DNA of 64,000 nucleotides from an uncultured bacterium (GCA_905216025.1 CAJMSE010000013.1:15195-79194); one strand, 5' to 3'. Positions 6,118 through 64,000 are shown, counted from the stretch's first letter. Notes: generated by a model not told the origin, from the sequence alone. Program-made: numbers and translations.

Positions 6118-6154
6118 CAGCGAAGCATTTATCAACGTGCTTCGCTGCTTTTTT
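6118..6154 (+). terminator. rho-independent terminator of the GH43 gene
   Basis: 10-bp stem cagcgaagca/tgcttcgctg with a 10-nt loop, followed by cttttttat. Confidence 0.7.
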
Positions 6155-6200
6155 ATCGCTTCGCGCCTCCGGTCTCATGCCCGTTGCCGGGTGGGGAGTG

Positions 6201-6368
6201 CTTCCCGACGGTATAACGGGGCGCTTCTGATGGTGTAACGGGATGTCCGTGACGGTGTGACGGATTGCCCGCCGTAGTATTCTGCCAGCTTTCAAACGCG
6301 TCTTTGAGAGCTACCAAAAGTGTTTTTGAGAGCTGAGCTAATCGCTTTTGACGCCTGCCGCATTCGCG
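6201..6368 (+). repeat. dispersed intergenic repeat, copy 1 of 4 (22-bp subrepeat array + conserved core)
   Basis: Shares ...CGGATTGCCCGCC...GCTTTCAAACGCGTCTTTGAGAGCTACCAAAAGTGTTTTTGAGAGCTGAGC... with 24108-24308, 61482-61638 and the reverse complement of 36838-37078. Confidence 0.85.
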
Positions 6369-6536
6369 ATAATGAAAAATTTACATTGCGACTAAGCGTA
6401 TCCGCCCTTTCAGGCGTATTACTATTAAACGCGGATTGTGCTGTTGCTATGTTCCGGCATGGTTGCGTCAGTGAGGCTGTTCCTCTGTAGAAGACTAACG
6501 TCGTATTATCAATAAAACTATTTAATATTACATTTT

Positions 6537-9500
6537 ATGAAGCAATTTCAACGACTAAGGAAAACATGCGTGGCTCTGGCCGTGCTCCTTGCGGGCACCG
6601 GAGCGGCTGCTCAGACCGCCGGCCTGAGGCTGCACTACACGTTTGAGAATGTTTCCGGCACCCAGGTGCCGGATGCTTCACCGTCCGGAGTGACGGCAGA
6701 GCTGAAGAATGAGGCCAAGGTCTTCAAGATGGGAAAGTACCATGTGCTGAACCTCGGCAAGGGGACGGGCTATCTCGACATGGGAGAGAACGCCGGAAAG
6801 GTGGTCAAGGACCTTGCAGACTTCAGTGTCTCGGCTTATTATTTCGTTGAGGAAGATGCCTCGCTGTCGGGCGCAGGATACTTCCTTTGGGCTTTCTCTG
6901 CTTTAGATGCCAATACCCAGACTGCCGGCCCGTACATGGCCTACAGGCTTAACGCACAGCGCTTTGCCACCTCAACAGGCGGATGGGGCGGCGAGGCCGG
7001 AATAGAGAAGGGCGGCGAGGCCGCCAAGGGAAAGTGGAGCCACGTGCTTTACCGCCAGAGCGGAGCCACGGGCGAGTTGTATATCGACGGTCGTCTGGCA
7101 GGAAAGAACACGGAGATGCCTGTTCTTAACGCCACGTTCACCGCCGCGCCGCGCTACTGCTGGATAGGCCGTGCTCCTTTCTCTGCAGACAACTACCTGA
7201 AAGGCACGTACATGACGGACTTCCGCGTGTATGACGCTGCCGTGACGGATGAGGAGGTTGCATCACTCGCTGCTGTGGCAAAAGACCTTGATAACGAGTA
7301 TTTCTATGGCGACCCGGGTGATTTCACCGCGCTGAAGAAACTCCTGGAAGAGTGCGAAGGCTTTGTAGCCGGAGCCTCGGGGACATATCTTCAGAACGCT
7401 GTAGACGAGGTGCAGGACGAGATTGAGATGGCCCGCCTGCTCATTGCTGCGGCCACGGCATCGCAGCCGATGATTGACAAGCGGTTAGAGTCTATGCAGG
7501 CTGCTCTCGACCATGCGCTGACCACTGCAGGCATAACATTCGGCGAGGTGAGCCACTTCATGCCGGAGAACCATGGTTTCGTGCATCCGGGCGGACTGCA
7601 CACGCAGGCCGACTTCGACCGCGTGAAGCAGATGCTGGCCGACGGCGACCCGACAATAACGGCGGCGATGAAGCTGCTGAGGAGCAACGAATACTCACAA
7701 TCGGGAGTTGCCACATGGCCGGTGTGGGAGATAATACGCGGTGGTGGCTCCGGACAGAATTATATCAATGCCTGCCGCGGTGCGGCGATGGCCTATCAGA
7801 ATGCCTTGCGCTGGAAGATTGACGGCACGAAGGCCAATGCCGACGGAGCCGTGCGCATACTGATGGCATGGGCTCGTGGAAACAAATATGTGGGTGGCGA
7901 CACAAACAAGTCGCTCGCTGCCGGACTTACCGGATATCAGTTTGCACAGGCTGCCGAGCTGATGCGCGACTACGAGGGATGGAGCCGCGACGACTTCGAG
8001 GAGTTCAAGCGCTATATGCTTGCTACGTGGTATCCCGTTGCTTGTGACTTCCTGCGCCGCCGCCACGATACATGGGCCAATTGGGTGCAGGCTGCAAAGG
8101 GCGAGCGCCCCGGCCACTATTGGTCTAACTGGGGACTGTGCAACGTGCTCTGCTTGATGAACATCGGAATACTATGCGACGACGTGCATATATATAATCA
8201 GGGCGTGTCGTTCTATAAGTACGACCACGTGGGAACGTTCGTTGAAGACCGCAGCCAGGCAAGCGTTATCCTCAACGACGGCTGCAACGAGTTTATCGGA
8301 AACCTCGTACCTGTGGTGCATGCCGACGACCGCGGCCCGTTTGGATACCTCGGACAGATGCAGGAGAGCGGCCGCGACCAGGGTCACGCGCTGATGGCTG
8401 CCGGACTGGCGGTAGACATCTGCAAGGTGGGCCTGAACCAAGGCGACGACCTCTATGCCTATATGAACGACCGTCTGGCTGCCGGTCTCGAGTGGACGGC
8501 TGCCTATAACCACAGCGGAGTGGACGACCTGCCATGGACAGGATATAACTATACCGACCGTGGCGGATGGATGGGAGCCGGCTGGCAGCAGGACGGCCCC
8601 AACGGCGGAGGCCGCGGAGGCTGTCGTCCGTATTGGGATCGCGTTGTCGGATACTACGAGGGCGTGCGCGGAGTGAAGATGAAATATTCTGAAGTGGCAG
8701 CAAAAGCCGTGCGCGGAAATTCAGGAACAGATGCCGGCGGAGGCAACTACGGACAGAATTCAGGCGGATTCGACCATTTGGGATTCACCACACTGATGGA
8801 CTATCGCCCGGCCATCGATCCGGCCAAGGCACCGGTGGTGCTCTCGGGACAAATCGTATACAACGGCGAGACACTCAAGAACCAGACCAACCTCGGCGGA
8901 CTTAAATATAAATATGAGGTCTGCCACACGAAGGCCGTGCCCGTTGGAGGCAAGGCCACACTCATGCCGATGCTTCCGGAGGGTGTCGCAGACAACGGCT
9001 CATGGAAGTGGGAGACGGGTGAGACGACCAAGGACATCACCGTAGACACAGACCGCAGCTACATCTACCGCGTGCACTATACTGCAGACAACGGTGCCGT
9101 GTCTACCCAGTCGTTTGCCATAGCAGTGGCCGGCGACAACAATCCTGACGTCATTCATCCGGAGATAACTGTTGACGGAGTGATTTATGTGGACACAGTG
9201 AAGACTGTACTCTATGGTGACGACGTCATCCTCTATGCCGGAAACTCTACCGGATGGTCTGACGAATATCTCTGGAGCAACGGCAAGAAGGGCAATCTCA
9301 TCGTCGTACCCAATATCACGAGCGACCGCACATATACCGTTCAGTATACCAACCAGGGCGGAAACGTCACGTCAAAGAAGTTCTATCTGAAGGTGGTATA
9401 CGGAGTGCCGAGCGTCGTTGTGGACGGCACGAAGTATACAGACTGCAGTGAAGTGGTAGTGGATAAGGGCCGGAACGTGGAGCTTCGTCTTGCCCTGCCG

Positions 9501-14558: not shown

Positions 14559-14624
14559 ATATATAGCTGTTTATTTCAACTTATATAGCTATTCTTTTCA
14601 ACTTATATAGCCGTTTACTTCAAC
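14559..14624. repeat. 3 x 22-bp tandem direct repeat filling the lysA-GT2 spacer
   Basis: Units atatatagctgtttatttcaac / ttatatagctattcttttcaac / ttatatagccgtttacttcaac, matching 18-19 of 22 positions pairwise. Unit 3 contains the lysA stop codon (14615-14617). Unit 1 abuts the GT2 ATG (14558). Confidence 0.85.
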
Positions 14625-15775
14625 TCGCTGCTCAGATATCCTTTGGGGAGGGCACGGCAATTGTACTGTGAAGCCATGATTTCTCCGTATGCGCCGGCAG
14701 ACATTATGGCAATGAGGTCGCCGCGGCTCACCTTGTTCAGTTCCTCGCTCTTTCCGAAGACATCGCTCGACTCGCATATAGGGCCGACAACGTCGTAGGT
14801 CTCGCAAGGCCCAGTGCTTGAGACGTTGACTATTTTGTGATGCGCCTGATACAGAGCTGGTCTTATCAGGTCGGTCATTCCGGCATCGACGATGGCGAAC
14901 TGCTTGTTAGTGCCTTGCTTTACATATAATGTTCTGGTGACCAGCGTCCCGCATTGGCCTACCACGGCACGTCCGAGCTCGAAGTGTAGCTTCTGGTCTG
15001 CGCCCAGTTTGAGATGCTTTGCGTAGCTGTCGAAGTAGCTCTTGAAATCCGGAACAGGGTTGTTCTCCGGCGAAACATAGTCTATTCCCAAGCCTCCGCC
15101 GACGTTGATGTTTGGCACGGTGATGCCGTTGGCCTTGAGATTGTCCTGTATTTCGTTTATCCGGTCGCACAGAGCAGCGAATACAGACATGTCGAGTATC
15201 TGTGAACCGACGTGGAAATGCAGGCCTACGAGCTCGACGTTGGCCATGCCCTTCATCGCCTCGAGCACGCCGTCGACGTCTGCCAGGGCTATGCCGAACT
15301 TGTTTTCGGCCAGTCCCGTGGTGATGTTGGCATGAGTATGGGCATCGACATCTGGGTTTATGCGGAGGGCAACACGTGCTGTCTTGCCTCTCTCGCTGGC
15401 CAGCATGTCGATGACTTCCAGCTCGGCGAGGCTCTCTACGTTGAAGCAGAAGATGCCGTTGTCAAGTGCCAAGCTAATCTCCCAATCACTTTTACCTACT
15501 CCGGCAAAGACGATGTCGGACGGTGTGAAGCCTGTCTTGAGGGCGATTTCTATCTCACCGCCGCTTACACAGTCGGCACCGAGCCCGGCACAGCTGATTA
15601 TCTTCAGGATTGCCGGATTGGCATTGGCTTTTATCGCATAGTGGACAACGAAGTTGCCGTGCTTTCCAGCCTCTGTCTTTATTGTCTTCAGAGTGGCTTG
15701 CAGCAGTTCCGTGTCGTAGTAATAGAACGGTGTCTGCAATGCCGCGAATTTCTCTGTCGGATATACTCTCTTCAT
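14615..15775 (-). CDS. lysA: diaminopimelate decarboxylase
   Basis: 386 aa. PLP-lysine region HYAIKANANPAIL, GGGLGI, and the Orn/DAP/Arg decarboxylase architecture. Confidence 0.9.
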   Translation of the reverse strand: MKRVYPTEKFAALQTPFYYYDTELLQATLKTIKTEAGKHGNFVVHYAIKANANPAILKIISCAGLGADCVSGGEIEIALKTGFTPSDIVFAGVGKSDWEISLALDNGIFCFNVESLAELEVIDMLASERGKTARVALRINPDVDAHTHANITTGLAENKFGIALADVDGVLEAMKGMANVELVGLHFHVGSQILDMSVFAALCDRINEIQDNLKANGITVPNINVGGGLGIDYVSPENNPVPDFKSYFDSYAKHLKLGADQKLHFELGRAVVGQCGTLVTRTLYVKQGTNKQFAIVDAGMTDLIRPALYQAHHKIVNVSSTGPCETYDVVGPICESSDVFGKSEELNKVSRGDLIAIMSAGAYGEIMASQYNCRALPKGYLSSELK

Positions 15776-17200: not shown

Positions 17201-17266
17201 GTCGTTTGTCATTTGAACCTTAGTCGTTTGCCATTCAAGCCTTGGCCGTTTGCCGCTTTCAGACTG
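17201..17266. repeat. ~2.5 x 22-bp degenerate tandem repeat in the ftsE-lysC spacer
   Basis: Units gtcgtttgtcatttgaacctta / gtcgtttgccattcaagccttg (17 of 22 identical) / gccgtttgccgctttcagactg (12 of 22). The last unit overlaps the ftsE stop codon (17259-17261). Confidence 0.6.
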
Positions 17267-22540: not shown

Positions 22541-23980
22541 TCAGAGTATTGTCTTGACTGCCTCAAGCATACCTTTCTCCTGTATGAGATCGAGATACTG
22601 CTTCACGAGAGCGTTCAGTCCGGTGATGGCGTTGAGGTCTTCGCTCCATATTGATGTAGCGCCGAGCACGCCGTCGGTCACCTTCTGTGTGTCGCCAGTA
22701 GCCCACAGTTCCTTGAGCAGGTCCATGATGTCCTGTGCGTCGTTCGGGATAATTTCCGTGCCGTCTTCTCTCTTGCCTCCCTTATAGTAGGTGATGATGG
22801 CTGCGAGACCGAACACGAGGCCCTTCGGCAGCTCGCCCTTGCGCTCCAGATATGTCTTCACTCCTGGCAGGTCGCGTGCGCAGAACTTCGGGAAGGAGTT
22901 GAGCATGATGCTCGTAACCTGATGGTCTACGTACGGATTGTCGAAGCGCTCGAGCACGTCGGCGGCAAACTTCTCCAGTTCGTCCATCGGAAGGTCAAGC
23001 GTCTGCATCAGCTCGTCGAACTGAACCTTGTGGATGTACTTGCCTATCACCTCATGGTTGCAGGCATCGCGCACGATGTTTACGCCGCTGAGGAATGCCA
23101 CGGGCGAGAGAACGGTGTGCGGGCCGTTGAGCAGAGTCACCTTGCGCTTGTGGTAGGGCTCCTCCGACGGTACGAACAGCACGTGCAGTCCGGCCTTGTC
23201 TGCGGGGAATTCCTTTGCTATCTCCTTCGGTGCCTCGATTACCCAGAGGTGGAAAGTCTCGGCCTGTACCACGAGATTGTCGCGGTAGCTGATCTTCTCC
23301 TGTATCTCGGCGATTTCCTTGCGGGGGAATCCGGGGACGATGCGGTCTACCAGTGTGGCATATACTCCGCAATGGTTGTCGAACCACTCCTTGAATTCCT
23401 TAGGCAGCTTCCAAAGCTCTATGTACTTGTTGATGCAGTCCTTCAGCACGTGTCCGTTCAGGAATATAAGCTCGCAGGGGAAGATGATGAGTCCCTTCGA
23501 CGGGTCACCGTTGAATGTCTGCCAGCGGCGGTAGAGCAGCTGCACGAGCTTGCCGGGGTAAGAAGATGCAGGAGCGTCTTCAAGCTTGCACTCGGGGTCG
23601 AATGCGATGCCGGCCTCTGTCGTGTTCGAGATGACGAAACGTATCTCAGGCTGGTCTGCCAGGGCCATGAAGGCCTGGTTCTGTGTATATGGATTCAGCG
23701 CACGGCTGATAACGTCTACGCGCTGCAGCGTGTTTACCGGCTGACCGTTTTCGCGGCCCTGCAGGTTCACGTGGTACAGGCAGTCCTGGCCGTTGAGCCA
23801 CTCTGCCATTCCGCGCTCGATGGGCTGGACGACTACAACCGAGCCGTTGAAGTCTGTTTTCTGGTCCATGTTCCAGATAATCCAATCTACGAATGCACGA
23901 AGGAAGTTACCTTCTCCAAACTGGATGACCTTTTCGGGCATCACGCTCTTTGGAGCAAAGTTTTTGTTTAATGGTTTCAT
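22541..23980 (-). CDS. uxaB: tagaturonate reductase (altronate oxidoreductase)
   Basis: 479 aa in the mannitol-dehydrogenase family. N-terminus EKVIQFGEGNFLRAFVDWII. Confidence 0.85.
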   Translation of the reverse strand: MKPLNKNFAPKSVMPEKVIQFGEGNFLRAFVDWIIWNMDQKTDFNGSVVVVQPIERGMAEWLNGQDCLYHVNLQGRENGQPVNTLQRVDVISRALNPYTQNQAFMALADQPEIRFVISNTTEAGIAFDPECKLEDAPASSYPGKLVQLLYRRWQTFNGDPSKGLIIFPCELIFLNGHVLKDCINKYIELWKLPKEFKEWFDNHCGVYATLVDRIVPGFPRKEIAEIQEKISYRDNLVVQAETFHLWVIEAPKEIAKEFPADKAGLHVLFVPSEEPYHKRKVTLLNGPHTVLSPVAFLSGVNIVRDACNHEVIGKYIHKVQFDELMQTLDLPMDELEKFAADVLERFDNPYVDHQVTSIMLNSFPKFCARDLPGVKTYLERKGELPKGLVFGLAAIITYYKGGKREDGTEIIPNDAQDIMDLLKELWATGDTQKVTDGVLGATSIWSEDLNAITGLNALVKQYLDLIQEKGMLEAVKTIL

Positions 23981-24034: not shown

Positions 24035-24107
24035 CACTTTTTTTTCTAAACGGAGATAAAACGGCGGGATTTATTTAATAAAAATGTATTTAGCCGGCCG
24101 GCTGGAT

Positions 24108-24308
24108 GCCGGATGCTCCCCGGTGCCGTGCGGCGGAGCCTCCGTGATGATGCGGCGGAGGCCTTCCGACGGTGCCATGGGCAGGGTTTGACGGTGCGTC
24201 GGATTGCCCGCTGATGTGTTCTGCTTGCTTTCAAATGCGTTTGTGCCCGCTATCAAAAGTGTTTTTGAGCGTTAAGCTAAGTGCTTTTGCCTGCTGCCGC
24301 ATGCTCTT
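24108..24308 (+). repeat. dispersed intergenic repeat, copy 2 of 4
   Basis: Four subrepeats (cggtgccgtgcggcggagcctcc / gtgatgatgcggcggaggccttcc / gacggtgccatgggcagggttt / gacggtgcgtcggattgcccgc), then the core GCTTTCAAATGCGTTTGTGCCCGCTATCAAAAGTGTTTTTGAGCGTTAAGC. Confidence 0.85.
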
Positions 24309-24340
24309 TCTGCATTCAGTAATTCTGTATCGGTCTTATG

Positions 24341-24395
24341 GAAATGAAAAATCCCCTTGCTCCTGTGGTCTGCATGGACCGTCGGAGCAAGGGGA
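24341..24395 (-). terminator. rho-independent terminator of uxuA-uxuB
   Basis: 12-bp stem tccccttgctcc/ggagcaagggga, followed on the minus strand by tttttcatttc. Confidence 0.7.
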
Positions 24396-36448: not shown

Positions 36449-36536
36449 GGAAAGTTGGCAGAGTGACCGAATGCGCTGGACTCGAAATCCGGTATACCCA
36501 TTGCGGGTATCGGGGGTTTGAATCCCTCACTTTCCG
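36449..36536 (+). tRNA. tRNA-Ser (anticodon CGA), type II with long variable arm
   Basis: Hand-folded. Acceptor stem GGAAAGT/ACTTTCC with discriminator G. Anticodon stem CTGGA/TCCGG with loop CT-CGA-AA. Variable arm ATACCC-attgc-GGGTAT. T arm GGGGG-TTTGAAT-CCCTC. No encoded CCA. The T loop reads TTTGAAT rather than the usual TTCGAAT. Confidence 0.85.
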
Positions 36537-36662: not shown

Positions 36663-36799
36663 TAGGGCCTTGTCTTTGTCCTCAGCCCGCGAGGGCTTGT
36701 TCACGTGCAGCTTGATAGTCATGTTTTTATAGTCAACGATATTCTTTTCCCATCCGAAAGCCCTTGCGGGCTGCGGCCAAAGACAAGACTCAGGCCCTA
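36663..36799. repeat. imperfect ~36-bp inverted repeat pair flanking a 59-bp spacer (MITE-like or large hairpin)
   Basis: The left arm is tagggccttgtctttgtcctcagcccgcgagggctt. The right arm is aagcccttgcgggctgcggccaaagacaagactcaggcccta. Paired blocks are 7 bp, 9 bp and 15 bp, with one 6-nt bulge. Confidence 0.6.
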
Positions 36800-36837
36800 C
36801 AAAGCTGATGATATTATTAATAAAACGTATGCAACGC

Positions 36838-37078
36838 CTTTTTTGATAGCTCTCAAAGACGTTTGGCTTAGCTGTCAAAAACACTTTTGATAGCTAAGCA
36901 CAAACTCATTTGAAAGCACGCACAATACATCGGCGGGCACTCCGATGCACCGTCAAAAGCTGCTTATTACACCATCAAAAACTGCTTATTGCATCATCAC
37001 GAGTACCTTATTGCAATTCATGGATTCCTCTGCGTAACTCATAGAAGCCTCATTGCATCATCAATGCAGCCTCGGCAG
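36838..37078 (-). repeat. dispersed intergenic repeat, copy 3 of 4 (inverted orientation, longest subrepeat array)
   Basis: The reverse complement contains GCTTTCAAATGAGTTTGTGCTTAGCTATCAAAAGTGTTTTTGACAGCTAAGCCAAACGTCTTTGAGAGCTATC. The plus strand at 36945-37077 shows about six ~21-bp degenerate units (caccgtcaaaagctgcttatta / caccatcaaaaactgcttattg / catcatcacgagtaccttattg ...). Confidence 0.85.
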
Positions 37079-37283
37079 ATTTACAATCCGCCGCCATGGG
37101 TTACATAATTTTGAGGCTTTCGCCTGCCGGGAGAGTCTAAACTGCCCAATATCTATATTGCTTCGGGCAATAAAGCATGAAGAAAATGGCTTTTTTCCCC
37201 TTTATTATCGCTTTTTTATCCGTTTTTTCTGAAAATATGTTTTTAAACATATAAATTAATTTGCAGATATGTGAAAAAACATT

Positions 37284-37291
37284 TAACTTTG
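37284..37291 (+). promoter_or_regulatory. orphan -7-like box TAACTTTG with no downstream ORF
   Basis: Exact TAnnTTTG match in an AT-rich gene-free region, about 60 nt upstream of the hairpin at 37347-37390. Confidence 0.25.
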
Positions 37292-37346
37292 CTGCTGTTA
37301 TCCTGAATACAATCTTTTTACCTTAAAAGGGCTAATACCTATTGAG

Positions 37347-37390
37347 GAAAATGCCTCTCACTGTGAAGCGGGAGGCATTTTATTTTATAT
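37347..37390. terminator. bidirectional terminator hairpin, most simply the mltG terminator
   Basis: The stem is gaaaatgcctc/gaggcattttc-like (aaaatgcctc ... gaggcatttt). It is followed by attttat on the plus strand and by a U-run from the stem base on the minus strand. It lies 50-90 nt downstream of the mltG stop (37440). Confidence 0.6.
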
Positions 37391-37439: not shown

Positions 37440-38465
37440 TTATTTTATTCCCCGCTCGTTCAGTGCCTTCGTGTATCTTGCCGCGTTGCGCAGGTGTTCC
37501 TGATAGGTCACGGCGAAGTTGTGCGTACCCGAGAAATCCTCCTTTGCGCACATGTATAGGTAGTCGTGTTCGGTGCGGTTCAGCACGGCGTCGATGCCTG
37601 CAATAGATGCCACCTTGATGGGACCGGGAGGCAGTCCGGTGTTCTTGTATGTGTTGTACGGGCTGTCTATGTGCAGCAGTTTGTTGTAGATGCGCCTCAG
37701 TCCGAAGTCCTGCCATGCGAACTTTATCGTCGGGTCGGCCTGCAGCGGCATGCCCGTCTTCAGGCGGTTGCAGTACATTCCCGCCACCATGGGTTTCTCT
37801 CCGTTGTTTGCCGTCTCTTCATCCACTATGCTCGCCAGCGTCGCCACCTCTACGGGAGTCATGCCTATGGCCTTTGCCTTAGCAGTGCGCTCCCCGTTCC
37901 AGAAAGCGTCGTGCTCCTTTTTCATGCGTTTCAAAAACCTGTCTATGCTCACATTCCAGTATATGTCGTATGTGTTCGGGATAAACATCGATACTATCGT
38001 GGCCGTGTCGTAACCCAGGCTGTTGCATACGGTCTGGTCTTTCAGTGCCCCGGCAATGGCCGTGCTGTCGAGCATCAGTTTTCTTGCAAGTGCCCCGGCC
38101 AGCCTGTCCACGGTCCGCACCTCAGGTATGGTCAGGCTCACCGGTGTCTGCCGTCCGCTTTTCAGATTTCTGAACACCGTGAAGATGCTCTCGTCCGGAT
38201 TTATCTCATAGCGTCCTGAGCGCACGGCATCTTGATAGCCGCTGTGCCTTGCCAGCGTCTTGAATCCGGCGATGGATGCCGACGATGCCGTCGGCCTGAG
38301 CTTAGCACACACGGAGTCGAGGTCGTCATCGGCGTCGATATATACATACTCAACCCCGGCAGACGAGGAAAATGACGACAGCAGGAAATAACATATAAGT
38401 CCGATGATAAGCAGCAAGCAGCCACCCGCAGTATAAAGATAGATCTTTGATTTTATAAATTTCAT
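37440..38465 (-). CDS. mltG: endolytic murein transglycosylase (YceG family)
   Basis: 341 aa. N-terminal TM segment and YceG-like core (EVATLASIVDEET, LPPGPI). Confidence 0.85.
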   Translation of the reverse strand: MKFIKSKIYLYTAGGCLLLIIGLICYFLLSSFSSSAGVEYVYIDADDDLDSVCAKLRPTASSASIAGFKTLARHSGYQDAVRSGRYEINPDESIFTVFRNLKSGRQTPVSLTIPEVRTVDRLAGALARKLMLDSTAIAGALKDQTVCNSLGYDTATIVSMFIPNTYDIYWNVSIDRFLKRMKKEHDAFWNGERTAKAKAIGMTPVEVATLASIVDEETANNGEKPMVAGMYCNRLKTGMPLQADPTIKFAWQDFGLRRIYNKLLHIDSPYNTYKNTGLPPGPIKVASIAGIDAVLNRTEHDYLYMCAKEDFSGTHNFAVTYQEHLRNAARYTKALNERGIK

Positions 38466-41288: not shown

Positions 41289-41926
41289 AAGAGTACGCTA
41301 CATACATATTCGACCTTGACGGGACGTTGCTCAACACACTGACCGACCTTGCCGGGGCAACGAACCATGCCCTGCGCACCCACGGCATGCCCGTGCATAC
41401 GGAAGAGGCCGTGCGGGGATTCGTCGGCAACGGCGTTAAGAAGTTGATTGAGCGTGCCGTGCCCGGCGGAGAGGCAAACCCGGCTTTTGAAGAGGTTTAC
41501 CGCACGTTCCGCGAATACTACCTTGAGCATTCGCTCGACAATACAAAGCCATACCCCGGAATCATGGACATGCTTGCGGAGCTGAAGGTACGGGGAAGGA
41601 AGATGGCTGTGGTCAGCAACAAGTTCTGCACCGCAACCGAAGAGCTGTGCCGCCATTTCTTCGGCGACTACATCACCGTGGCAATCGGCGAGCGCGAGGG
41701 CATACGGCGCAAGCCGTGGCCCGACACCGTGATAGAGGCGATGAACCGGCTCGGCACCGGCCGTGAGGGCACCGTATATATAGGCGACAGCGACGTCGAC
41801 ATAGCGACAGCACGCAACAGCGGTCTCCCGTGCATCAGCGTGCTGTGGGGGTTCCGCGGCCGGGAGTTTCTCGTGGAGCATGGAGGCACGGTGTTCATAT
41901 CCGAGCCCCGCGAACTGCTATATTAG
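41285..41926 (+). CDS. HAD-superfamily hydrolase (phosphoglycolate phosphatase-like)
   Basis: Motif I YIFDLDGTLLNT, then VVSNK and YIGDSDVDI. The start overlaps the malQ stop (ATGA). Confidence 0.8.
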   Translation: MKEYATYIFDLDGTLLNTLTDLAGATNHALRTHGMPVHTEEAVRGFVGNGVKKLIERAVPGGEANPAFEEVYRTFREYYLEHSLDNTKPYPGIMDMLAELKVRGRKMAVVSNKFCTATEELCRHFFGDYITVAIGEREGIRRKPWPDTVIEAMNRLGTGREGTVYIGDSDVDIATARNSGLPCISVLWGFRGREFLVEHGGTVFISEPRELLY

Positions 41927-42628
41927 CGTGTGGCGGTCGAGATATTCCTGCACGGCATCCTTGTAGCTTTCTGATATCGGCAGGAACGTACTCCCAAAGA
42001 CGATGCGGTTGCGGTCGATGGCGCTTATCCGGCTCATGTGCACGATGTATGAACGGTGCGTGCGCATGAACTCCGGGTGGGGCATGCGGTCTTCGAGGTT
42101 TCTCATGTTCAGGAGAGACATTATCTTCCCGCCATCGGCAAGGTATATCCTGACATAGTCTTTCTGCCCCTCGATGTAGAGAATGTCGTCGAACGATATT
42201 CTCAGCAGTTTGTAGTCGCTCTTTATCATCAGGAATCTTCCGTTGCCGTCGGCCTCCGGCCTGCGTGTCGCCGTGAACCAGTCGAGCGCCTTGTTTGCTG
42301 CGGCGAGGAACTCTCCGTAGCTGAACGGCTTTAGCAGATAGTCGATGGCATTCACCTTATAGCCCTCTATGGCATACTGGCTGAATGCCGTGGTGAATAT
42401 CACCTTGGTCTCCTTTGGCAGTATCTTGGCGAATTCCGTCCCGCTGAGTTCAGGCATCTGTATGTCGAGGAATATGAGGTCGGCAGGCGTCTCCCTTATG
42501 TCCTTCATTGCACTGATGGCGCTGTGGTACACTCCGGTGAGCCTGAGAAACGGCGTTTTGCGGGCATATCCGGCGATAAGTTCGGCTGCCAGCGGCTCGT
42601 CATCTATCACAATGCAGTTTAGTGTCAT
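41918..42628 (-). CDS. LytR/AlgR-family response regulator (REC + LytTR DNA-binding domain)
   Basis: CIVIDDEP and DLIFLDIQMPELSG in the REC domain. C-terminal LytTR-type region (FMRTHRSYIVH). Confidence 0.85.
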   Translation of the reverse strand: MTLNCIVIDDEPLAAELIAGYARKTPFLRLTGVYHSAISAMKDIRETPADLIFLDIQMPELSGTEFAKILPKETKVIFTTAFSQYAIEGYKVNAIDYLLKPFSYGEFLAAANKALDWFTATRRPEADGNGRFLMIKSDYKLLRISFDDILYIEGQKDYVRIYLADGGKIMSLLNMRNLEDRMPHPEFMRTHRSYIVHMSRISAIDRNRIVFGSTFLPISESYKDAVQEYLDRHTLI

Positions 42629-43658
42629 ATATGTTTATAGTTGATTTGTATATCGTATTGTCCTTGTCAGTGCCCGTTGTCCATTCATAACATCCGGGAT
42701 AGAGAAGTTCCAGGCGTGCTCTTACCTGCTTGAGTCCTATCCCGTGGCCGCTGTTGTCGTCGGAATTCTTGGGGTGGTTGCTGTTCTCGATTGAGCACGT
42801 GATGCGGTTTTCGTCGGCTTCGAGCCTTATATGGATGAAGCTGCGGCCCGTTGCGCTGACGCCGTGCTTGAACGCATTTTCTACGAGAGATATGAAAATG
42901 AGCGGTGCAATGTGTATATTGCACGGTTCTGGAATCCTTATGTCCGTCCTTATGTCGACCTCATTGGAGAGCCGTATCTTCATCAGGTCTATGTAACTGA
43001 CGAGAAACTCGGTCTCTTTGGCCAGGTTGACGTAAGGCTGCTGGTTGTCGTAGAGCACATGGCGCAGCAGCTTGCTCAGTTCCATGATGGTCTGTTGGGC
43101 GCGCTGTGTGTCAATGGCCGTGAGGGCGTAGATGTTGTTGAGCGTATTGAGCAGGAAGTGGGGGTTTATCTGCGACCTCAGGTTCTTCAGTTCGGCTGCG
43201 GTCCGTGCTGCCTCAGCCTCGCGCCGTGCGGTCTCTGCCGCCTGCCATCTCATTGCCAGATGTATGCCTGTGGCAATGGCAGCGGCAATGGCAAGGTTGA
43301 AGCAGTTTCTTATTATCATGAAGTGAAAGACGAGTTGTTCATGTGGCTGCCGTGCATTGTGATGACTGAATATAGGTCTGTTGTATTCCATCCAGAGATG
43401 CACTCCGATGCCTATGACGATTATTGTCAGCACGTTGACCAGCCAGTAGAGCTTCTTTTCTCCACCAAAGAGAAAGCGGGGAGTGAGCCAGAGATAGTTC
43501 AGGTAGAACAGGACAAACTGTGCCAGCGGGGCTACGCTTATCGCGGCAAACTGCCGCAGGCTCATGCCGTTGCCGCTGTTCATGAACATCAGCGGCGATA
43601 TGAATATTCCAACCCATACCGCTGCGTGGATTATGTATGCCGGTTTTCTTGCATTCAT
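42600..43658 (-). CDS. LytS-like sensor histidine kinase (His_kinase PF06580-type)
   Basis: Multi-TM N-terminus, QINPHFLLNTLNNIYAL H-box and NSGHGIGLKQV ATPase motif. The 3' end overlaps the regulator gene by 29 nt. Confidence 0.85.
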   Translation of the reverse strand: MNARKPAYIIHAAVWVGIFISPLMFMNSGNGMSLRQFAAISVAPLAQFVLFYLNYLWLTPRFLFGGEKKLYWLVNVLTIIVIGIGVHLWMEYNRPIFSHHNARQPHEQLVFHFMIIRNCFNLAIAAAIATGIHLAMRWQAAETARREAEAARTAAELKNLRSQINPHFLLNTLNNIYALTAIDTQRAQQTIMELSKLLRHVLYDNQQPYVNLAKETEFLVSYIDLMKIRLSNEVDIRTDIRIPEPCNIHIAPLIFISLVENAFKHGVSATGRSFIHIRLEADENRITCSIENSNHPKNSDDNSGHGIGLKQVRARLELLYPGCYEWTTGTDKDNTIYKSTINIYDTKLHCDR

Positions 43659-48991: not shown

Positions 48992-49219
48992 GGTTGTCTG
49001 TTGATTTATTGTTATGGTGTAAGAATATTAAAAAGTCGTATCGGTGATGTGATGAAAACTCCTATAAAATAAGATTTGAGATATCCCGTTGCCTTTGTAA
49101 TCCATTTACTTCAGACGTTAATCTGCAAGTTGTGGCCCGCCATCGACAGGAGATGTGTCTCTGTTTTCAGTTTAATTGATGAGTATCCCAATCTAACCGA
49201 TACGACCTGTTCCTTTATT
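48992..49219 (-). promoter_or_regulatory. long (~228 nt) structured 5' leader of ribE; not a recognisable FMN riboswitch
   Basis: An 11-bp perfect long-range stem (49035-49045 gtcgtatcggt with 49196-49206 accgatacgac) is followed on the RNA by UUUUU. A second stacked helix uses a G-U pair that works only on the ribE-sense strand. Confidence 0.35.
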
Positions 49220-58673: not shown

Positions 58674-58757
58674 GGGGCATACCCTTGCAAGCAGCCGGCG
58701 TGATGAGGCTGTATGATTGTCAGTTCATCACGCCGGCTGCTTGCAAGGGTATGCCCC
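58674..58757. repeat. perfect 33-bp inverted repeat with 18-nt spacer downstream of clpC (giant hairpin or terminator)
   Basis: ggggcatacccttgcaagcagccggcgtgatga (58674-58706) and tcatcacgccggctgcttgcaagggtatgcccc (58725-58757) show no mismatch. Confidence 0.85.
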
Positions 58758-58806: not shown

Positions 58807-61341
58807 TTATGCTATGTCGAAGTGCAGCCGCTCCTCGCCCTCTCTCTTGCTCACCGTGATTGAGGTGCCGGCGCTGAGGTTGCCGTTCACAATCATTTCC
58901 CCGAGTTCGTCTTCGAGATAGTTCTGTATGGCGCGTTTCAGCGGACGGGCTCCGAACTGTATGTCGTAGCCCTTGGTTGCGATGAACTCCTTGGCCTTGT
59001 CGTCAAGGCTGAGAGTGTATCCGAGCTGGCTGATTCTGCCTAACAGCCCCTTCAGCTCTATGTCGACGATGTTCTTTATGGCGTCGAGACCAAGCTGGTC
59101 GAAGGTTATTATCTCGTCGAGACGGTTCAGAAACTCGGGGGCGAACTGGTGGTTCAGTGCCTTCTGGATGATGCTGCGGGCATATTCCTTATCCTTGTCG
59201 TTGAGTGCCAGGCCTGCATCGGAAGCATTGAATCCCACTCCGCGCGAGAAGTCCTTGAGCCGCTTGGTGCCCGCATTGCTCGTCATTATTATCACGGTGT
59301 TGCGGAAATCCACCGCGCGGCCGTTGCCGTCGGTGAGCCGTCCCTCGTCGAGCACCTGCAGCAGCAGGTTGTAGACGTTGCCGTGAGCCTTCTCTATCTC
59401 GTCGAGCAGGATGATGGAGTAGGGGTGGCGCCTCACCCTCTCGGTCAGCTGGCCGCCCTCTTCATATCCCACGTATCCGGGAGGGGCACCTATCAGGCGC
59501 GAAACGTTGAAGCTCTCGGTATACTCGCTCATGTCGATGCGTATCAGGTTGTCTGCCGAACCGAACATGAACTCGGCCAGCTTCTTTGCGAGATAGGTCT
59601 TGCCCACGCCCGTGGGACCGAGGAACATGAACGTGCCGATGGGGTGGTTCGGGTCTTTCAGGCCTACGCGGTTGCGCTGTATGGCCTTCACCATCTTGTC
59701 GATGGCCGCATCCTGTGCAACGACGTTCTTCTTCAGCTCGGCGGCCATGCCGCGGAGGCGTATCCCCTCGGCCTCGGCCATGCGCTGCACGGGCACGCCC
59801 GTCATCATCGAAACCACGTCTGCCACGTTGTCTTCGGTGACGGTCTGCCTGCTTCCGCTTTCGCCCGCGGCCCATCTCTCGTTAAGATCTTTCAGCTCGG
59901 CTTCAAGCTCGGTCTGCCTGTCGCGGTAGCCTGCGGCCAGCTCGAAGTTCTGGTTTCTCACGGCCGCCTGCTTCTTCTCCTTTATGTAGCTTATCTCCTT
60001 CTCCTTCTCGGTGATTTCCGGCGGGATTACGGCCGAGCTGAGATGAACCTTCGAGCCCACCTCGTCCAGCGCGTCGATGGCCTTGTCGGGAAACTGCCTG
60101 TCGGTGAGGTAGCGCCCTGTCAGCCTTACGCATGCGGCCAGTGCCTCGTCGGTGTACTCCACATGGTGGTGGTGTTCGTAGCGTTCTTTTATGTTATGGA
60201 GTATCGCGAGGGTCTCCTCGCTTGTCGTCGGTTCGACAATCACCTTCTGGAAGCGGCGCTCAAGAGCACCGTCTTTCTCGATGCTATTGCGGTATTCGTC
60301 GAGCGTGGTGGCTCCGACACACTGTATTGCACCGCGCGCCAGCGCCGGTTTCAGCATGTTGGCGGCATCCATGCTGCCGGGTGCCGAGCCGGCTCCGACG
60401 AGTGTGTGAATCTCGTCGATGAATATGATGATGTCCGGATTCTGCTCTATCTCCTTCACGAGGGCACGTATGCGCTCTTCAAACTGCCCCCTGTATTTCG
60501 TTCCGGCCACGATGCCGGCCATGTCGAGGCTCACCACTCTCTTATTATATAAGATAGGTGAAGTGTGGCGCGAGGCTATCATCTGGGCCAGGCCCTCGAC
60601 GATTGCGCTCTTCCCGACTCCCGGCTCGCCTATCAGTATAGGGTTGTTCTTCTTCCGGCGGCACAGAATCTCGACCACCCTGAGAATCTCCTTCTCGCGG
60701 CCCACCACCGGGTCGAGCTTGCCTTCGGCTGCCGCCAGCGTCATGTCTATGCCGAACTTGTCGAGGAATGGCGTCTTTCCGGCGGTCTTCTGCGCCTGCG
60801 CAGTCTTCACGTCCTTTGTGCGGCCGTCCTGCGGTCCGCGTGCGTCCTGAAGACCGTCGTCGTCCTCTTCCTCGTCGGGCAGTCCGATGCCGTCTTTCGG
60901 CCGCTCGCCCTGCCGCAGCAGCGTGAGCACGTCTTCGTAGTTCATGTCGTTCATTTCAAGTATCTCTTTCGCACCGTTATTGGCGCTGTCGTGAAGTATC
61001 GCGAGTAACAGGTGCTGCTCGTCGACCCTCTTGGTGTGCTGTATCCTCGCCTCGAGCACGGCCAGCTTCAGTATGTTGCTTGCCTTCTCGTTGAGCACAA
61101 GCTCCGAGGTCGTCACAGGACGGCCAATCTCGTCTTCGCGCACGCGGTTCTCGAGTGCGCTTCTTACGGATGCTATGTTTATGTCTAATCTGCTGAAAAC
61201 GTCATTGACAGCATTGTTCTTTATCCTCAACAAGCCGAGGAGCAAGTGCTCCGGCCCGACTGACAGGCTTGCAAGGCGTGCCGCCTCCTCCCTGCTGTAG
61301 GCCAGTATCTCTGAAACCTTAGGTGAAAATTGACTGGTCAT
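58807..61341 (-). CDS. clpC: ATP-dependent Clp protease ATP-binding subunit (ClpC-type AAA+ chaperone)
   Basis: 844 aa. Two Clp_N repeats, Walker [12 protein letters not shown] and [11 protein letters not shown], and a short UVR-like middle motif ([13 protein letters not shown]). Confidence 0.85.
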
Positions 61342-61481
61342 TATGTCGTATCTCCTCTTGTTTTATATATATGTAAGCTATCAGTCTGACACAAGCAAAA
61401 GGCATGCCAAAGTGTATTCGCACACCAACGGATATTGCAGCTTTGACATATATTAAACCGGAACCGATGCCATGGGCAGCT

Positions 61482-61638
61482 CCTGACGGTGCGGCGGAGC
61501 CGTTTTGACGGTGTAACGGGTTGCCCGTGATGGTGCATCGGATGGCCCGCCGATGTATTGCGGTTGCTTCCAAATGCGTTTGTGCCAGCTATCAAAAGTG
61601 TTTTTGAGAGCTGAGCCAAACGTTTTTGAGAGCCATCG
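61482..61638 (+). repeat. dispersed intergenic repeat, copy 4 of 4
   Basis: cctgacggtgcggcggagccgttt / tgacggtgtaacgggttgcccg / tgatggtgcatcggatggcccgcc, then GATGTATTGCGGTTGCTTCCAAATGCGTTTGTGCCAGCTATCAAAAGTGTTTTTGAGAGCTGAGCCAAACGTTTTTGAGAGC. Confidence 0.85.
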
Positions 61639-61750
61639 TAAACACTGCGGTCGGCCATGACGGCCCGGCCGCTTGCACACAGGCATGCCGCCGGGCGGAA
61701 ATAAAGCATTAAAATATATTTAAATGTTTCGCCGGATGAAAAAAAAGTAG

Positions 61751-61758
61751 TAATTTTG
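61751..61758 (+). promoter_or_regulatory. -7 promoter box TAATTTTG upstream of gyrA
   Basis: Exact TAnnTTTG match 122 nt upstream of ATG 61880. Confidence 0.4.
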
Positions 61759-61879
61759 AAGGCTTGAAAAAGGCTCGGAACGCCTTAGAAAGGCCGGAAA
61801 GTGGCTTAAACGGCATTTTGACGTGCCGGCGCGTGAGTTGCCGGGAAGAAGTGAAGAAACAGTAAACAACAATAATCGA

Positions 61880-64000
61880 ATGGATCAGACATTAGATCAA
61901 GACAGAATTATCAAGATTAACATTGAGGAAGAGATGAAGTCCTCATATATCGACTACTCGATGTCGGTGATTGTGGCCCGTGCCCTTCCTGACGTGCGCG
62001 ATGGTTTCAAACCGGTTCACCGCCGTATCCTGTACGGTATGAAGGGCATCGGAAACACCAGCGACAGCCCGTACAAGAAGTGTGCCCGCGTTGTCGGCGA
62101 GGTGCTCGGTAAGTACCACCCGCACGGAGACAGCTCGGTATACGGAGCGCTCGTGAGGATGGCTCAGGAGTGGAACATGCGCTATACGCTGGTCGACGGG
62201 CAGGGTAACTTCGGTTCGGTCGACGGCGACTCGGCTGCTGCCATGCGTTACACGGAGTGCCGTCTGTCGAAGATGGGTGAGCACATAATGGACGACCTCG
62301 AGAAGGAGACGGTCGACATGACCACCAACTTCGACGATTCGCTGCTCGAACCGACGGTCATGCCGACGAAGATACCCAACCTGCTCGTGAACGGAGGAAA
62401 CGGTATTGCCGTGGGTATGGCGACGAACATCCCGACGCACAACCTCGCCGAGGTCATCGACGGATGCTGTGCATACATCGACAACCCCGATATAGACACG
62501 GAGGGACTCATGGAATATATCAAGGCCCCCGACTTCCCGACCGGTGCCTACATATACGGCATACAGGGAGTGAAGGATGCCTACGAGACAGGGCGCGGCC
62601 GCATCGTGATGAGGGCCAAGGCCGAGATAGAGAGCGGAGACACGCACGACAAGATTGTAGTGACGGAGATACCCTACGGAGTGAACAAGGCCGACCTCGT
62701 GAAGTATATCGCCGACCTCGCCAACGAGAAGAAAGTGGAGGGCATCAGCTACGTGAACGACGAGTCGGGACGCCAGGGAATGCGCATCGTCGTCGACGTA
62801 AAGCGCGAGGCCAACGCCAATGTAGTGCTGAACAAGCTGTTCAAGATGACGGCTTTACAGAGCTCGTTCTCAGTGAATTGCATAGCCCTCGTGAAGGGAC
62901 GCCCGCGGCTGCTCTCGCTCAAGGATTGCGTGCAGCACTTCGTAGAGCACCGTCACGACGTCACGATACGCCGCACCAAGTTTGAACTGAAGAAGGCACA
63001 GGACCGTGCCCACATCCTCGAGGCACTCATCGTGGCTTGCGACAACATCGACGAGGTGGTGCATATCATAAGAGGTTCGAAGACTCCCCAGGATGCCGTG
63101 GAGAACCTCAAAAAGCGCTTTGACTTCGACGACGTGCAGGCAAAGGCTATCGTCGACATGAGGCTCAGCCAGCTGACAGGTCTCAGGATGGACCAGCTGC
63201 ACCAGGAATACGAGGAACTGGAGAAACTGATTGCACACTTGCAGGAGATTCTGGCCAACCCGGAGATATGCAAGCAGGTGATGAAGGATGAACTGCAGGA
63301 GGTTAAGGAGAAGTATGGCGATGAGCGCCGCACGGAGATAAAATACTCCAGCGAGGAGTTCAATGCCGAGGATTTCTATCCGGACGACCCTGTGGTGATA
63401 ACCATCAGCCACCTCGGCTATATCAAGAGAACTGCTCTCACGGAGTTCAAGGAGCAGAGCCGCGGAGGCGTCGGAAGCAAGGGCGCACACACGCGAGACC
63501 AGGATTTCACCGAATATATATATCCGGCGACGATGCACAACACGCTCCTCTTCTTCACGCAGAAGGGTCGCTGTTACTGGCTGAAGTGCTACGAGATTCC
63601 CGAAGGGGCGAAGAATGCGAAGGGACGCGCCATACAGAACCTGCTCAACATCGAGCCGGACGACGCCATCAACGCAGTGCTCCGCATCAAGAAGTTTGAC
63701 GACGAGGAGTTCCTCAGAAGCCACTATGTGGTGTTTGCCACGAAGAACGGACTGATAAAGAAGACCTGTCTCGAGGCATACAGCCGACCGCGTGCAAACG
63801 GTGTGATAGCCATCAACATCACGGAGGGCGATCAGGTGGTGGGCGTAAGGCTTACAAACGGAAACAACGAACTGATAATTGCCAACCGCAACGGACGTGC
63901 CATCAGGTTCAATGAGCAGGAAGTGCGCGTCATGGGCCGTGTGTCGACCGGCGTGCGCGGCATGCGTCTCGACGGCGGCGACGACGAAGTGGTGGGCATG
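61880..64000 (+). CDS. gyrA: DNA gyrase subunit A, N-terminal 707 codons (continues beyond window end)
   Basis: Absent from the ORF track because it is open at the window edge. My translation from ATG 61880 gives [54 protein letters not shown]...[22 protein letters not shown]...[21 protein letters not shown], which includes the AAMRYTE active-site tyrosine motif. The minus ORFs 61943..62647 and 62870..63724 are antisense shadows. Confidence 0.92.

Follow-up and report, generated by a model that had tools for sequence, protein, structure and literature searches.

A dispersed intergenic repeat built of phased 22-bp units in an uncultured Prevotellaceae bacterium

What is the intergenic segment found around positions 6201-6368 of this DNA, and to what does it owe its recurrence in several unrelated spacers? 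In the 64,000-nt stretch analysed here (hereafter the window; GCA_905216025.1 CAJMSE010000013.1:15195-79194), an earlier note made by reading the DNA had pointed to four homologous intergenic segments, and the window does contain exactly four copies of one intergenic repeat, three on the + strand and one on the - strand. A 29-nt block, GCTATCAAAAGTGTTTTTGAGAGCTGAGC, matches the window four times at three mismatches or fewer, against 0.00 matches expected from 100 shuffles of the window, and an independent repeat search of the window linked all four copies. A profile HMM built from eight copies picked out the same four segments (E=1e-47 to 4e-50) and, in a scan of the window, no further, partial or degenerate copies. 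The alignment set behind this profile comprised the four window copies and their orthologs, that is, eight sequences from four genomes; three further copies of one element (copy 3) from close strains were compared apart from it. The copies share about 170 nt of alignable sequence, and their similarity is therefore not restricted to a block of some 30 bp, a possibility that the earlier note had held against its own reading. Measured in register over the whole element, the paralogs are 65-75% identical, with 69-85% identity in the proximal part, or core, and 72-86% in the segment immediately distal to it (the last A unit and the linker, described below), so that the 75-90% estimated by eye in the earlier note is true of the core only. 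The four stretches are copies of one previously undescribed non-coding repeat, and chance is no explanation for their resemblance. The sequence comes from an uncultured gut bacterium of the Prevotellaceae, whose closest named relatives, judged by ClpC, are Xylanibacter and Prevotella (~78%).

The architecture of the element is defined by its unit period, which is exactly 22 bp whatever the copy or species, as seen both in the period reported by TRF (22) and in motif positions; mapping of the TGAYGRTG motif places the A units 22 bp apart in all eight sequences from the four genomes. Each copy consists of two adjoining arrays, a distal A array and a proximal B array, separated by an 11-nt linker. 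The earlier description of phased subrepeats upstream of a conserved core can be refined accordingly, the subrepeats being exactly 22 bp long and the core being itself a B array of four 22-bp units. An A unit is made of a conserved 9-mer, TGAYGRTGY, followed by a variable 13-nt tail. Across 24 A units combined in a logo, information stands at about 1.4 bits for each of positions 1-9; positions 10-15 vary between two states that differ by a transition, and positions 16-22 are nearly free, with almost no information. A B unit is made of a 12-nt pseudo-palindrome, TGAnAGCTnTCA, followed by AAAGTGTTTT, and the palindromes are degenerate in several units. The imperfect hairpin noticed earlier, GCTATCAAAA-gtgt-TTTTGAGAGC, is present and corresponds to the junction of two B units. 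The linker spans half a period between the last A unit and the first B unit and is associated with a small hairpin (CATCGG-N8-CCGATG). The starts of the last A unit and the first B unit are 33 nt apart (22+11), and the motifs therefore all lie on one helical face. The number of A units varies from 3 in copy 1 to about 6 in copy 3, giving 7-10 units per element in total; the most degenerate units are the distal ones, which makes the 5' limit of the element fuzzy. Alignment of the four copies revealed no leader or tail homology beyond the arrays. Other period-22 arrays exist in the window (at 14560 and 17201), and they do not match the HMM of the element. The G+C content of the element is near the genome mean, that of the window being 53.5%.

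The copies occupy spacers with very different neighbours. Copy 1 (~6180-6370, +) opens with degenerate distal units at 6180-6205, continues with A units at 6206-6227, 6228-6249 and 6250-6271, carries its hairpin-bearing linker region at about 6258-6282, and ends with B units at 6283-6304, 6305-6326, 6327-6348 and 6349-6370; it lies between the terminator of a GH43 gene (6118-6147) and the start, at 6537, of a gene for a 1234-aa lectin/lyase-like protein. Copy 2 (~24100-24309, +) has degenerate distal units at 24100-24144, A units at 24145-24166, 24167-24188 and 24189-24210, its linker at 24211-24221, and B units at 24222-24243, 24244-24265, 24266-24287 and 24288-24309. It is flanked on one side by a uxuB-like gene on the - strand (start at 23980, -7 box at 24034-24027) and on the other by the terminator of an SDR gene (24352-24395). 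Copy 3 (~36834-37110, -) has about six A units running from 37063 to 36934, the last three at 36999-36978, 36977-36956 and 36955-36934, followed by the linker (36933-36923) and by B units at 36922-36901, 36900-36878 (23 nt), 36877-36856 and 36855-36834; its neighbours are a tRNA gene at 36449-36536, with a hairpin insert of 135 bp, and a BTnc060-like sRNA region. Copy 4 (~61458-61648, +) starts with a degenerate distal unit at 61462-61483, has A units at 61484-61505, 61506-61527 and 61528-61549, a linker region with the CATCGG-N8-CCGATG hairpin at about 61536-61560, and B units at 61561-61582, 61583-61604, 61605-61626 and 61627-61648. It sits between two divergent genes, clpC on the - strand (start at 61341) and gyrA on the + strand (start at about 61880, -7 box at 61751-61758). 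The orientation of the four copies relative to neighbouring genes and promoters is inconsistent, and the Bacteroidetes-type -7 boxes of the flanking uxuB and gyrA genes fall just outside the element, the array of copy 2 beginning ~66 bp from the uxuB -7 box. Elsewhere in the window, the segment 41918-43658 encodes a response regulator of the LytTR type and a kinase.

No ORF is conserved across the copies, in which stops and frameshifts interrupt the frames, and when 5.8 billion proteins were searched with a six-frame pseudo-peptide profile of the element, there was no match at E<=1. An inverted-repeat search of the copies and their flanks found no terminal inverted repeats (TIRs) bracketing any copy, the pairs that it did find being all within the core, and the window encodes no transposase, integrase or recombinase. 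These absences of a conserved ORF, of TIRs and of a nearby transposase had all been claimed in the earlier note, and its judgement that the repeat is not a classical MITE also stands: the element has neither TIRs nor a transposase nearby, and clear target-site duplications (TSDs) are lacking in its flanks, which hold only chance-level matches of 4-6 nt (such as TTCGCG around copy 1) beside a fuzzy 5' boundary. An Rfam search that included FopS, GibS and other Bacteroides sRNAs returned no named family overlapping any copy, either at the gathering threshold or at E<=10. Plasmid and phage records show no similarity to the element, and an origin in either is rejected on that ground. The proposal of an unrecognised dispersed intergenic family is thus borne out, with no Rfam, plasmid, phage or BrickBuilt match.

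Comparison with characterised repeats and binding sites leads to the same point from another side. Membership in BrickBuilt, compared by unit length and TIRs only, is rejected on the exact 22-nt unit and the absence of TIRs; the IS5-type TIR of BrickBuilt (GAGACCTTTGCA/TGCAAAGGTCTC) has four loose matches in the window against 5.0 expected, none of them near the copies. Compared with BOX by description, the element has its constant part on one side of the A array only and no TIRs. It departs from REP/BIME sequences in that its units are direct repeats, copy 4 lies between divergent promoters, and no Y1 transposase is encoded in the window, and from iteron-type origins in having four chromosomal copies, no rep gene and no plasmid similarity. 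The spacing rule of LytTR-type operators is observed, the 9-mer TGAYGRTGY recurring at exactly 22 bp; their placement is not, the 3-6 A units and four B units being separated from the closest -7 box by at least ~66 bp. Sigma-54 promoters (TGGCAC-N5-TTGC), matS sites and SlmA-type palindromes were considered by eye and misfit in spacing. The element fails the defining tests of MITEs, BrickBuilt, BOX, REP, Rfam families, LytTR operators and iteron origins.

The loci of relatives, reached via flanking proteins, place the family in a single lineage. The gyrA-clpC spacers of two relatives, L026 (ClpC 93% identical) and L027 (85%), carry the element at the copy 4 site, and the L026 ortholog has 44 extra nt, equal to two more A units. 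The closer relative L029 (~96% DNA identity) has the element at the sites orthologous to copies 2 and 3, and the close strains L042-L044 have copy 3; no empty site was seen within the clade among the strains and species examined. In the outgroup L032 (81%), gyrA and clpC are likewise divergent, but the 476 bp between them hold neither the element nor a tandem repeat, and two other outgroup contigs are also without the element. An exact scan for the invariant 20-mer GCTAYCAAAAGTGTTTTTGA returned chance matches among the GTDB species representatives (3), the JGI metagenomes (18) and IMG/VR (3), a result that covers that exact word only, since sister species already differ in it; on BLAST none of the matches carried the element, and the best-looking of them (L007) falls within an ORF of 531 aa. 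In the sequences that could be examined, the family is restricted to a narrow clade of Prevotellaceae. Window position 24240, in the core of copy 2, is the end point of four independent k=31 assemblies, which come from two studies. The last 30-mer of these assemblies is absent from the other three window copies, the longest word that those have in common with copy 2 being 21 nt, and a further contig stops at the corresponding point of copy 3. Such breaks inside the core suggest, indirectly, that more copies exist elsewhere in the genome; for those at 24240 the alternative is that strains differ at that base in each of the four samples.

The same relatives allow the pace of change in the element to be set against a neutral clock, for which four-fold degenerate sites were used (12.1% divergence between the window and L029, 38% for L026 and 56% for L027). 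Copy 2 differs from its L029 ortholog at 21 of 211 sites (10.0%, against the neutral 12.1%), as compared with 0 of 119 sites in the adjoining uxuB promoter region and 0-6% in other intergenic DNA, and the element overall drifts at roughly the neutral rate. This average conceals a difference among sites. Positions classed as family-conserved, that is, conserved among the other paralogs, with divergence scored between orthologs, change about half as fast as variable ones: 9.0% versus 18.4% for the pooled L029 pairs (p=0.015; neutral 12%), 28% versus 44% for copy 4 against L026 (p=0.04; neutral 38%), and 30% versus 55% for copy 4 against L027 (p=0.001; neutral 56%). On this pattern, about half of the positions of the element are protected, either by selection or by conversion toward the consensus.

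Several observations bear on exchange between copies. Cores within the genome are more alike than the copy 4 core is to its ortholog in the sister species, the linker and core of copy 4 being 72-86% identical to paralogs and 56-60% identical to the L026 ortholog; for the A array of copy 4 the figures are 52-66% and 77%, respectively. The part that is more conserved differs by comparison, being the A array against L026 and the linker and core against L029. In a 17-nt tract of copy 3, all six sites at which L029 differs carry the copy 1 state, three of them uniquely, and strains L043 and L044 carry the copy 4 state at the same tract. Copy 3 of L044 has three differences in its 100-nt core and none in its 177-nt A array, at a divergence of 0.19% in the flanking genes. 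The aligned copies show a swapping of short patches between paralogous cores, and arrays that differ by whole 22-bp units.

The explanation that best fits this body of evidence, and to which we would give about an even chance of being correct, is a lineage-restricted, DNA-level interspersed repeat of the minisatellite type, of the same kind as BOX, BrickBuilt and MIRU. The element is neither an RNA gene nor a TIR-bounded transposon. Its copies reside stably in intergenic spacers over long periods, as the occupied orthologous sites attest; the number of units would change by slippage or unequal exchange, and gene conversion, possibly with occasional duplication into new spacers, would keep the family homogeneous. 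The phased motifs, lying on one helix face every two turns, would be putative docking sites for a DNA-binding protein, which might be either an architectural or regulatory protein of the host or a factor that recombines the element. Docking of some protein is the most natural reason for exact phasing combined with site-specific constraint and, judging from geometry alone, the phased motifs probably do dock one. If the copies influence the genes beside them, they would do so through their location a short way upstream of promoters. Several findings sit less easily with the interspersed minisatellite. Insertion polymorphism in the clade, a target-site duplication and a candidate mobilising enzyme were all looked for and not seen, the comparisons with L026 and L029 disagree on which part is more conserved, and the core palindromes are degenerate in several units. 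The slower change of family-conserved sites could instead reflect a host function, in which case an emphasis on selfish or neutral persistence would be wrong, and the whole reading is drawn from four window copies and their orthologs.

A host function is the substance of the best-surviving alternative, according to which the element is a cis-regulatory or architectural array, a set of operators for a host protein that binds every two helical turns. The binder could be a LytTR-type or AraC-type regulator or a nucleoid-associated protein, and the A 9-mers and B palindromes would modulate the promoters of uxuB, of clpC and gyrA, of the sRNA gene and of the gene for the 1234-aa protein. The exact 22-bp phasing is conserved across species, each A unit presents a 9-nt conserved block followed by 13 less-conserved nucleotides, and the copy 4 site has been kept in three species. 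Family-conserved sites change at 0.5-0.75 times the neutral rate, even at 56% neutral divergence, and all copies are upstream of promoters, copy 2 at ~66 bp from the uxuB -7 box. The geometry also fits the direct repeats of LytTR regulators, whose family sites are 11-13 bp apart and which in Bacteroides LRS-like operons take the form of 11-bp repeats 11 bp apart, equivalent to a 22-bp period (PMC6193735), and a regulator of this type is encoded with its kinase within the window. Against this, the divergence of the element is near neutral overall, compared with 0 of 119 differences in the adjoining promoter DNA. The A 8-mer occurs in phased pairs seven times inside the copies and twice elsewhere in the window, both times in coding DNA and at about chance level, and the window contains no phased core palindromes outside the copies and no phased motif pairs upstream of the LytTR operon. 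The motifs therefore travel only as a package, rather than forming an operator regulon. Known LytTR sites are moreover pairs located ~10 bp upstream of the -35 box of the regulated operon, which is often autoregulated, with further sites at other promoters of the regulon; the arrays here have 7-10 units. The genes beside the copies have no function in common, and the copies are inconsistently oriented with respect to the flanking promoters. The protein-binding array suggested in the earlier note is plausible in view of the phasing, the 9-mers and the slowly changing family-conserved sites, and weakened by the near-neutral divergence and the lack of solo sites; as an account of the whole element, operators of a host regulator are a tentative proposition that we consider unlikely.

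A more speculative version of protein docking, which we regard as quite doubtful, turns the package itself into the functional object. The element would be a dedicated chromosomal docking platform on which a lineage-specific protein polymerises over the 7-10 phased sites, on one face of the helix, repeated in many promoter-upstream spacers. Direct sites of the monomer type would in this case run into palindromes of the dimer type, and the copies together could serve across the genome as a system of architecture or insulation, in co-evolution with the protein. Such co-evolution would explain why the cores are homogeneous within a genome and different between sister species, and why family-conserved positions hold out against change as the others drift.

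A non-autonomous transposable element, either MITE-like or derived from transposon ends with phased transposase sites, and mobilised in trans, would account for other aspects of the data. The family is multi-copy, exclusively intergenic and present in either orientation; its restriction to one lineage and its absence from the outgroup spacer are consistent with an ancestral insertion. The divergence implied by the 69-85% identity of paralogous cores falls between the splits from L029 (12%) and L026 (38%), a value to be expected had the copies multiplied in a burst once L026 had split off, and the four k=31 assemblies that break at one base in the core suggest that copies occur elsewhere. What speaks against mobilisation in trans is the lack of bracketing TIRs and of consistent target-site duplications in the flanks, of any transposase or integrase in the 64 kb and its flanks, and of any presence/absence polymorphism among the carrier strains and species, together with the absence of plasmid or phage similarity and of the BrickBuilt IS5-type TIR. 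An element of this class is improbable on this evidence.

The structured RNA that the earlier note had offered as its other option would be transcribed from the given strand, either as a set of paralogous small RNAs or as an RNA acting in cis. RNAalifold does assign a better energy to that strand than to the opposite one (-34.6 versus -17.3 kcal/mol for four sequences; -15.4 versus -7.1 for eight), but the preference is compositional, because shuffled sequences shift likewise. In dinucleotide shuffles, copies 3 and 4 reach z-scores of about -5 on both strands and the other six sequences range from +0.3 to -2.4; folding equally well on both strands points, for copies 3 and 4, to an effect of the palindromes. 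The consensus fold changes register once orthologs are added. G.T exceeds A.C by 50 to 17 in total, an excess located in the linker hairpin (31 versus 1, partly from invariant pairs) and not in the core stems (19 versus 16). In the linker hairpin, CATCGG-N8-CCGATG, pairing is maintained across U-A, A-U and G-U changes, and the hairpin segment changed at 1 of 33 sites between copy 2 and the L029 ortholog; covariation is seen in this one hairpin of 7-10 bp only, and no other part of the element is a candidate structural feature, be it of RNA or of single-stranded DNA. Multicopy sRNA families do exist in Bacteroides, FopS among them (PMC11697453), yet a FopS- or GibS-like sRNA is rejected on the empty Rfam search, even at E<=10, and on the anatomy of FopS, a single-stranded seed with a terminator. 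Scans with sigma-70 and Bacteroidetes models found no TAnnTTTG promoter inside the element on either strand, and no terminator belonging to it was found. With neither promoter nor terminator, and with copy 4 placed between divergent promoters, a structured RNA is not supported, and the inconsistent, strand-symmetric folding and the inconsistent orientation relative to neighbouring genes make it the least credible of these readings, with very little probability left to it.

The interest of an interspersed minisatellite of this sort extends beyond the four spacers described here. Gut Prevotellaceae are dominant but poorly cultured, and to our knowledge no species-specific interspersed repeats have been described for them. 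Interspersed repeats shape bacterial genomes by seeding recombination, and they can tune neighbouring promoters; they also break assemblies, as illustrated by the four metagenome assemblies that stop at a single base of the core. The combination of a compact structure, measurable gene conversion and site-specific constraint makes the element a tractable model for how a repeat persists with no obvious transposase, and its unit number and core variants could serve as a marker for strain typing. If the phased motifs dock a protein, they would represent an unrecognised layer of promoter-upstream organisation in the Bacteroidales.

Among known systems, those that resemble the element in geometry differ from it most in distribution. 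Plasmid iterons have a 22-bp period. LytTR operators and iterons have in common with the element their direct repeats, spaced 21-22 bp from centre to centre, and the binding of a protein along one face of the helix (PMC6193735). Both are nevertheless single-locus arrangements, a pair beside a -35 box or an origin beside a rep gene, whereas the element is a package scattered over several loci; it has neither a regulator nor a rep gene beside it, and its motifs do not occur as solo sites. The palindromic repeats present the opposite case. REPs are single GC-rich palindromes of 20-40 nt, usually found in transcribed 3' regions and associated with RAYT transposases, and IHF and gyrase dock on some repeats of the REP/BIME or ERIC type. 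REP/BIME and ERIC sequences are species-specific extragenic palindromic repeats that undergo concerted evolution (in part from the background of PMC3049150). The element, by contrast, consists mainly of direct 22-bp arrays, and one of its copies (copy 4) occupies a non-transcribed spacer flanked by divergent promoters.

Three families that couple short tandem arrays to dispersed intergenic loci come closer. MIRUs are mycobacterial minisatellite units arrayed at dispersed intergenic loci, with copy-number changes of whole units; the units are 40-100 bp long and often lie within operons, overlapping stop and start codons. We know of no TIRs and no transposase for them. Compared by description, MIRU and the element are alike in their short tandem arrays, dispersal, whole-unit changes and lack of TIRs, and differ in that no stop/start overlap or operon placement is seen for the element. 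BOX elements of S. pneumoniae contain a boxB module of 45 nt. Like the element, they are modular and intergenic, with a tandem module (boxB in one, the A units in the other) whose number differs from locus to locus and among strains or species, beside constant modules, new insertions are rare, and effects on neighbouring genes are possible (PMC3049150). BOX differs in its boxA and boxC ends with TIRs and target-site duplications, in being AT-rich, and in a predicted RNA fold when co-transcribed, the element having one constant side, no TIR or TSD seen, near-mean G+C and no conserved fold. BrickBuilt of P. gingivalis is likewise a repeat of the Bacteroidales, strictly intergenic, species- or clade-restricted and present in dispersed copies, and in both families tandem imperfect units of ~22-23 nt, varying in number by locus, are joined to a conserved part outside the array, with no internal transposase and with locations near promoters of unrelated genes (PMC4596501). 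BrickBuilt alone has a 23-nt unit, a leader and tail of up to ~300 nt, TIRs (GAGACCTTTGCA...TGCAAAGGTCTC) and arrays of up to ~23 units, and promoter activity has been demonstrated for it (PMC4596501); the element has an exact 22-nt unit, two unit types, 7-10 units, and no leader, tail or TIRs. The family is therefore new, and its kind is already known, namely that of intergenic packages with no coding capacity that carry a tandem array variable in its number of units.

In the spacer between the divergently transcribed clpC and gyrA genes, the fourth copy of the repeat lies between two conserved blocks. The first, GCAAAAG-N4-TGCCAAAGT (window positions 61395-61420), is a short motif upstream of clpC that is kept in every relative examined (L026, L027, L028 and L036), down to 80% ClpC identity; the second, the gyrA promoter and 5' leader (approximately 61700-61880), is nearly invariant across three species. 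Both the clpC-upstream motif and the gyrA promoter and leader are conserved, whereas the repeat that intervenes between them drifts. At the other end of clpC, the spacer that separates this gene from the start of the GH115 gene contains a perfect inverted repeat (58674-58757) with 33-nt arms (GGGGCATACCCTTGCAAGCAGCCGGCGTGATGA and its reverse complement) and an 18-nt loop.

The third copy has a different neighborhood. Between it and a tRNA gene (36449-36536, plus strand) there is a long imperfect hairpin of about 135 bp (36664-36798). Two close strains (L043 and L044) and several Logan contigs also carry this hairpin, and three short-read contigs terminate within it. The hairpin is missing from the 96%-identical relative L029, where approximately 50 unrelated nt take its place, and this relative carries a separate 112-nt insertion on the opposite side of copy 3 from the hairpin site. 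The hairpin may constitute a second small palindromic insertion element. Apart from a cluster of substitutions, strain L044 (GCA_965318165.1) is near-identical to the window sequence and shows 6 differences over 3 kb. The cluster comprises 21 substitutions within the YceG gene, starting at position 38018 (aligned window 38018-38400), many of them common to L043, and from the aligned sequences it looks like a homologous-recombination tract acquired from a more distant strain.

The tRNA gene and a Bacteroidales-1 (6S-like) RNA (49028-49207, minus strand; 101.8 bits) are the only Rfam matches in the window at gathering threshold. A full-length match to BTnc060 (37170-37381, plus strand; 62.9 bits, E = 1.6e-9) falls far under the narrow gathering score of that family, and the region shows strong conservation of its 3' half and terminator hairpin. 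It also contains a -7 box, TAACTTTG (37284-37291), with an associated -33 TTTG. This region is probably a Prevotellaceae homolog of BTnc060, a Bacteroides thetaiotaomicron sRNA whose expression is reported to depend on growth phase and to be up-regulated in cells adhering to mucus.

An ABC-transporter/MacB-like operon ends with the genes for a LytTR-type response regulator and a histidine kinase of the LytS type (41918-43658, minus strand), and no element-like phased repeats were found near these two genes. Besides the element, two other tandem arrays of period 22, with 3.0 copies of TATATAGCTGTTTATTTCAACT (14560-14625) and 2.5 copies of GTCGTTTGCCATTCAAACCTTA (17201-17254), occupy short spacers directly upstream of minus-strand genes, the first next to a GT2 glycosyltransferase gene and the second next to an aspartokinase gene. 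The sequences of these arrays are unrelated to the element, and the element HMM matches neither of them. The 22-bp period is common to all sizeable tandem repeats of the 64-kb window, and it is also that of the 11+11-bp direct-repeat operators reported for LytTR-like systems of Bacteroides (PMC6193735).
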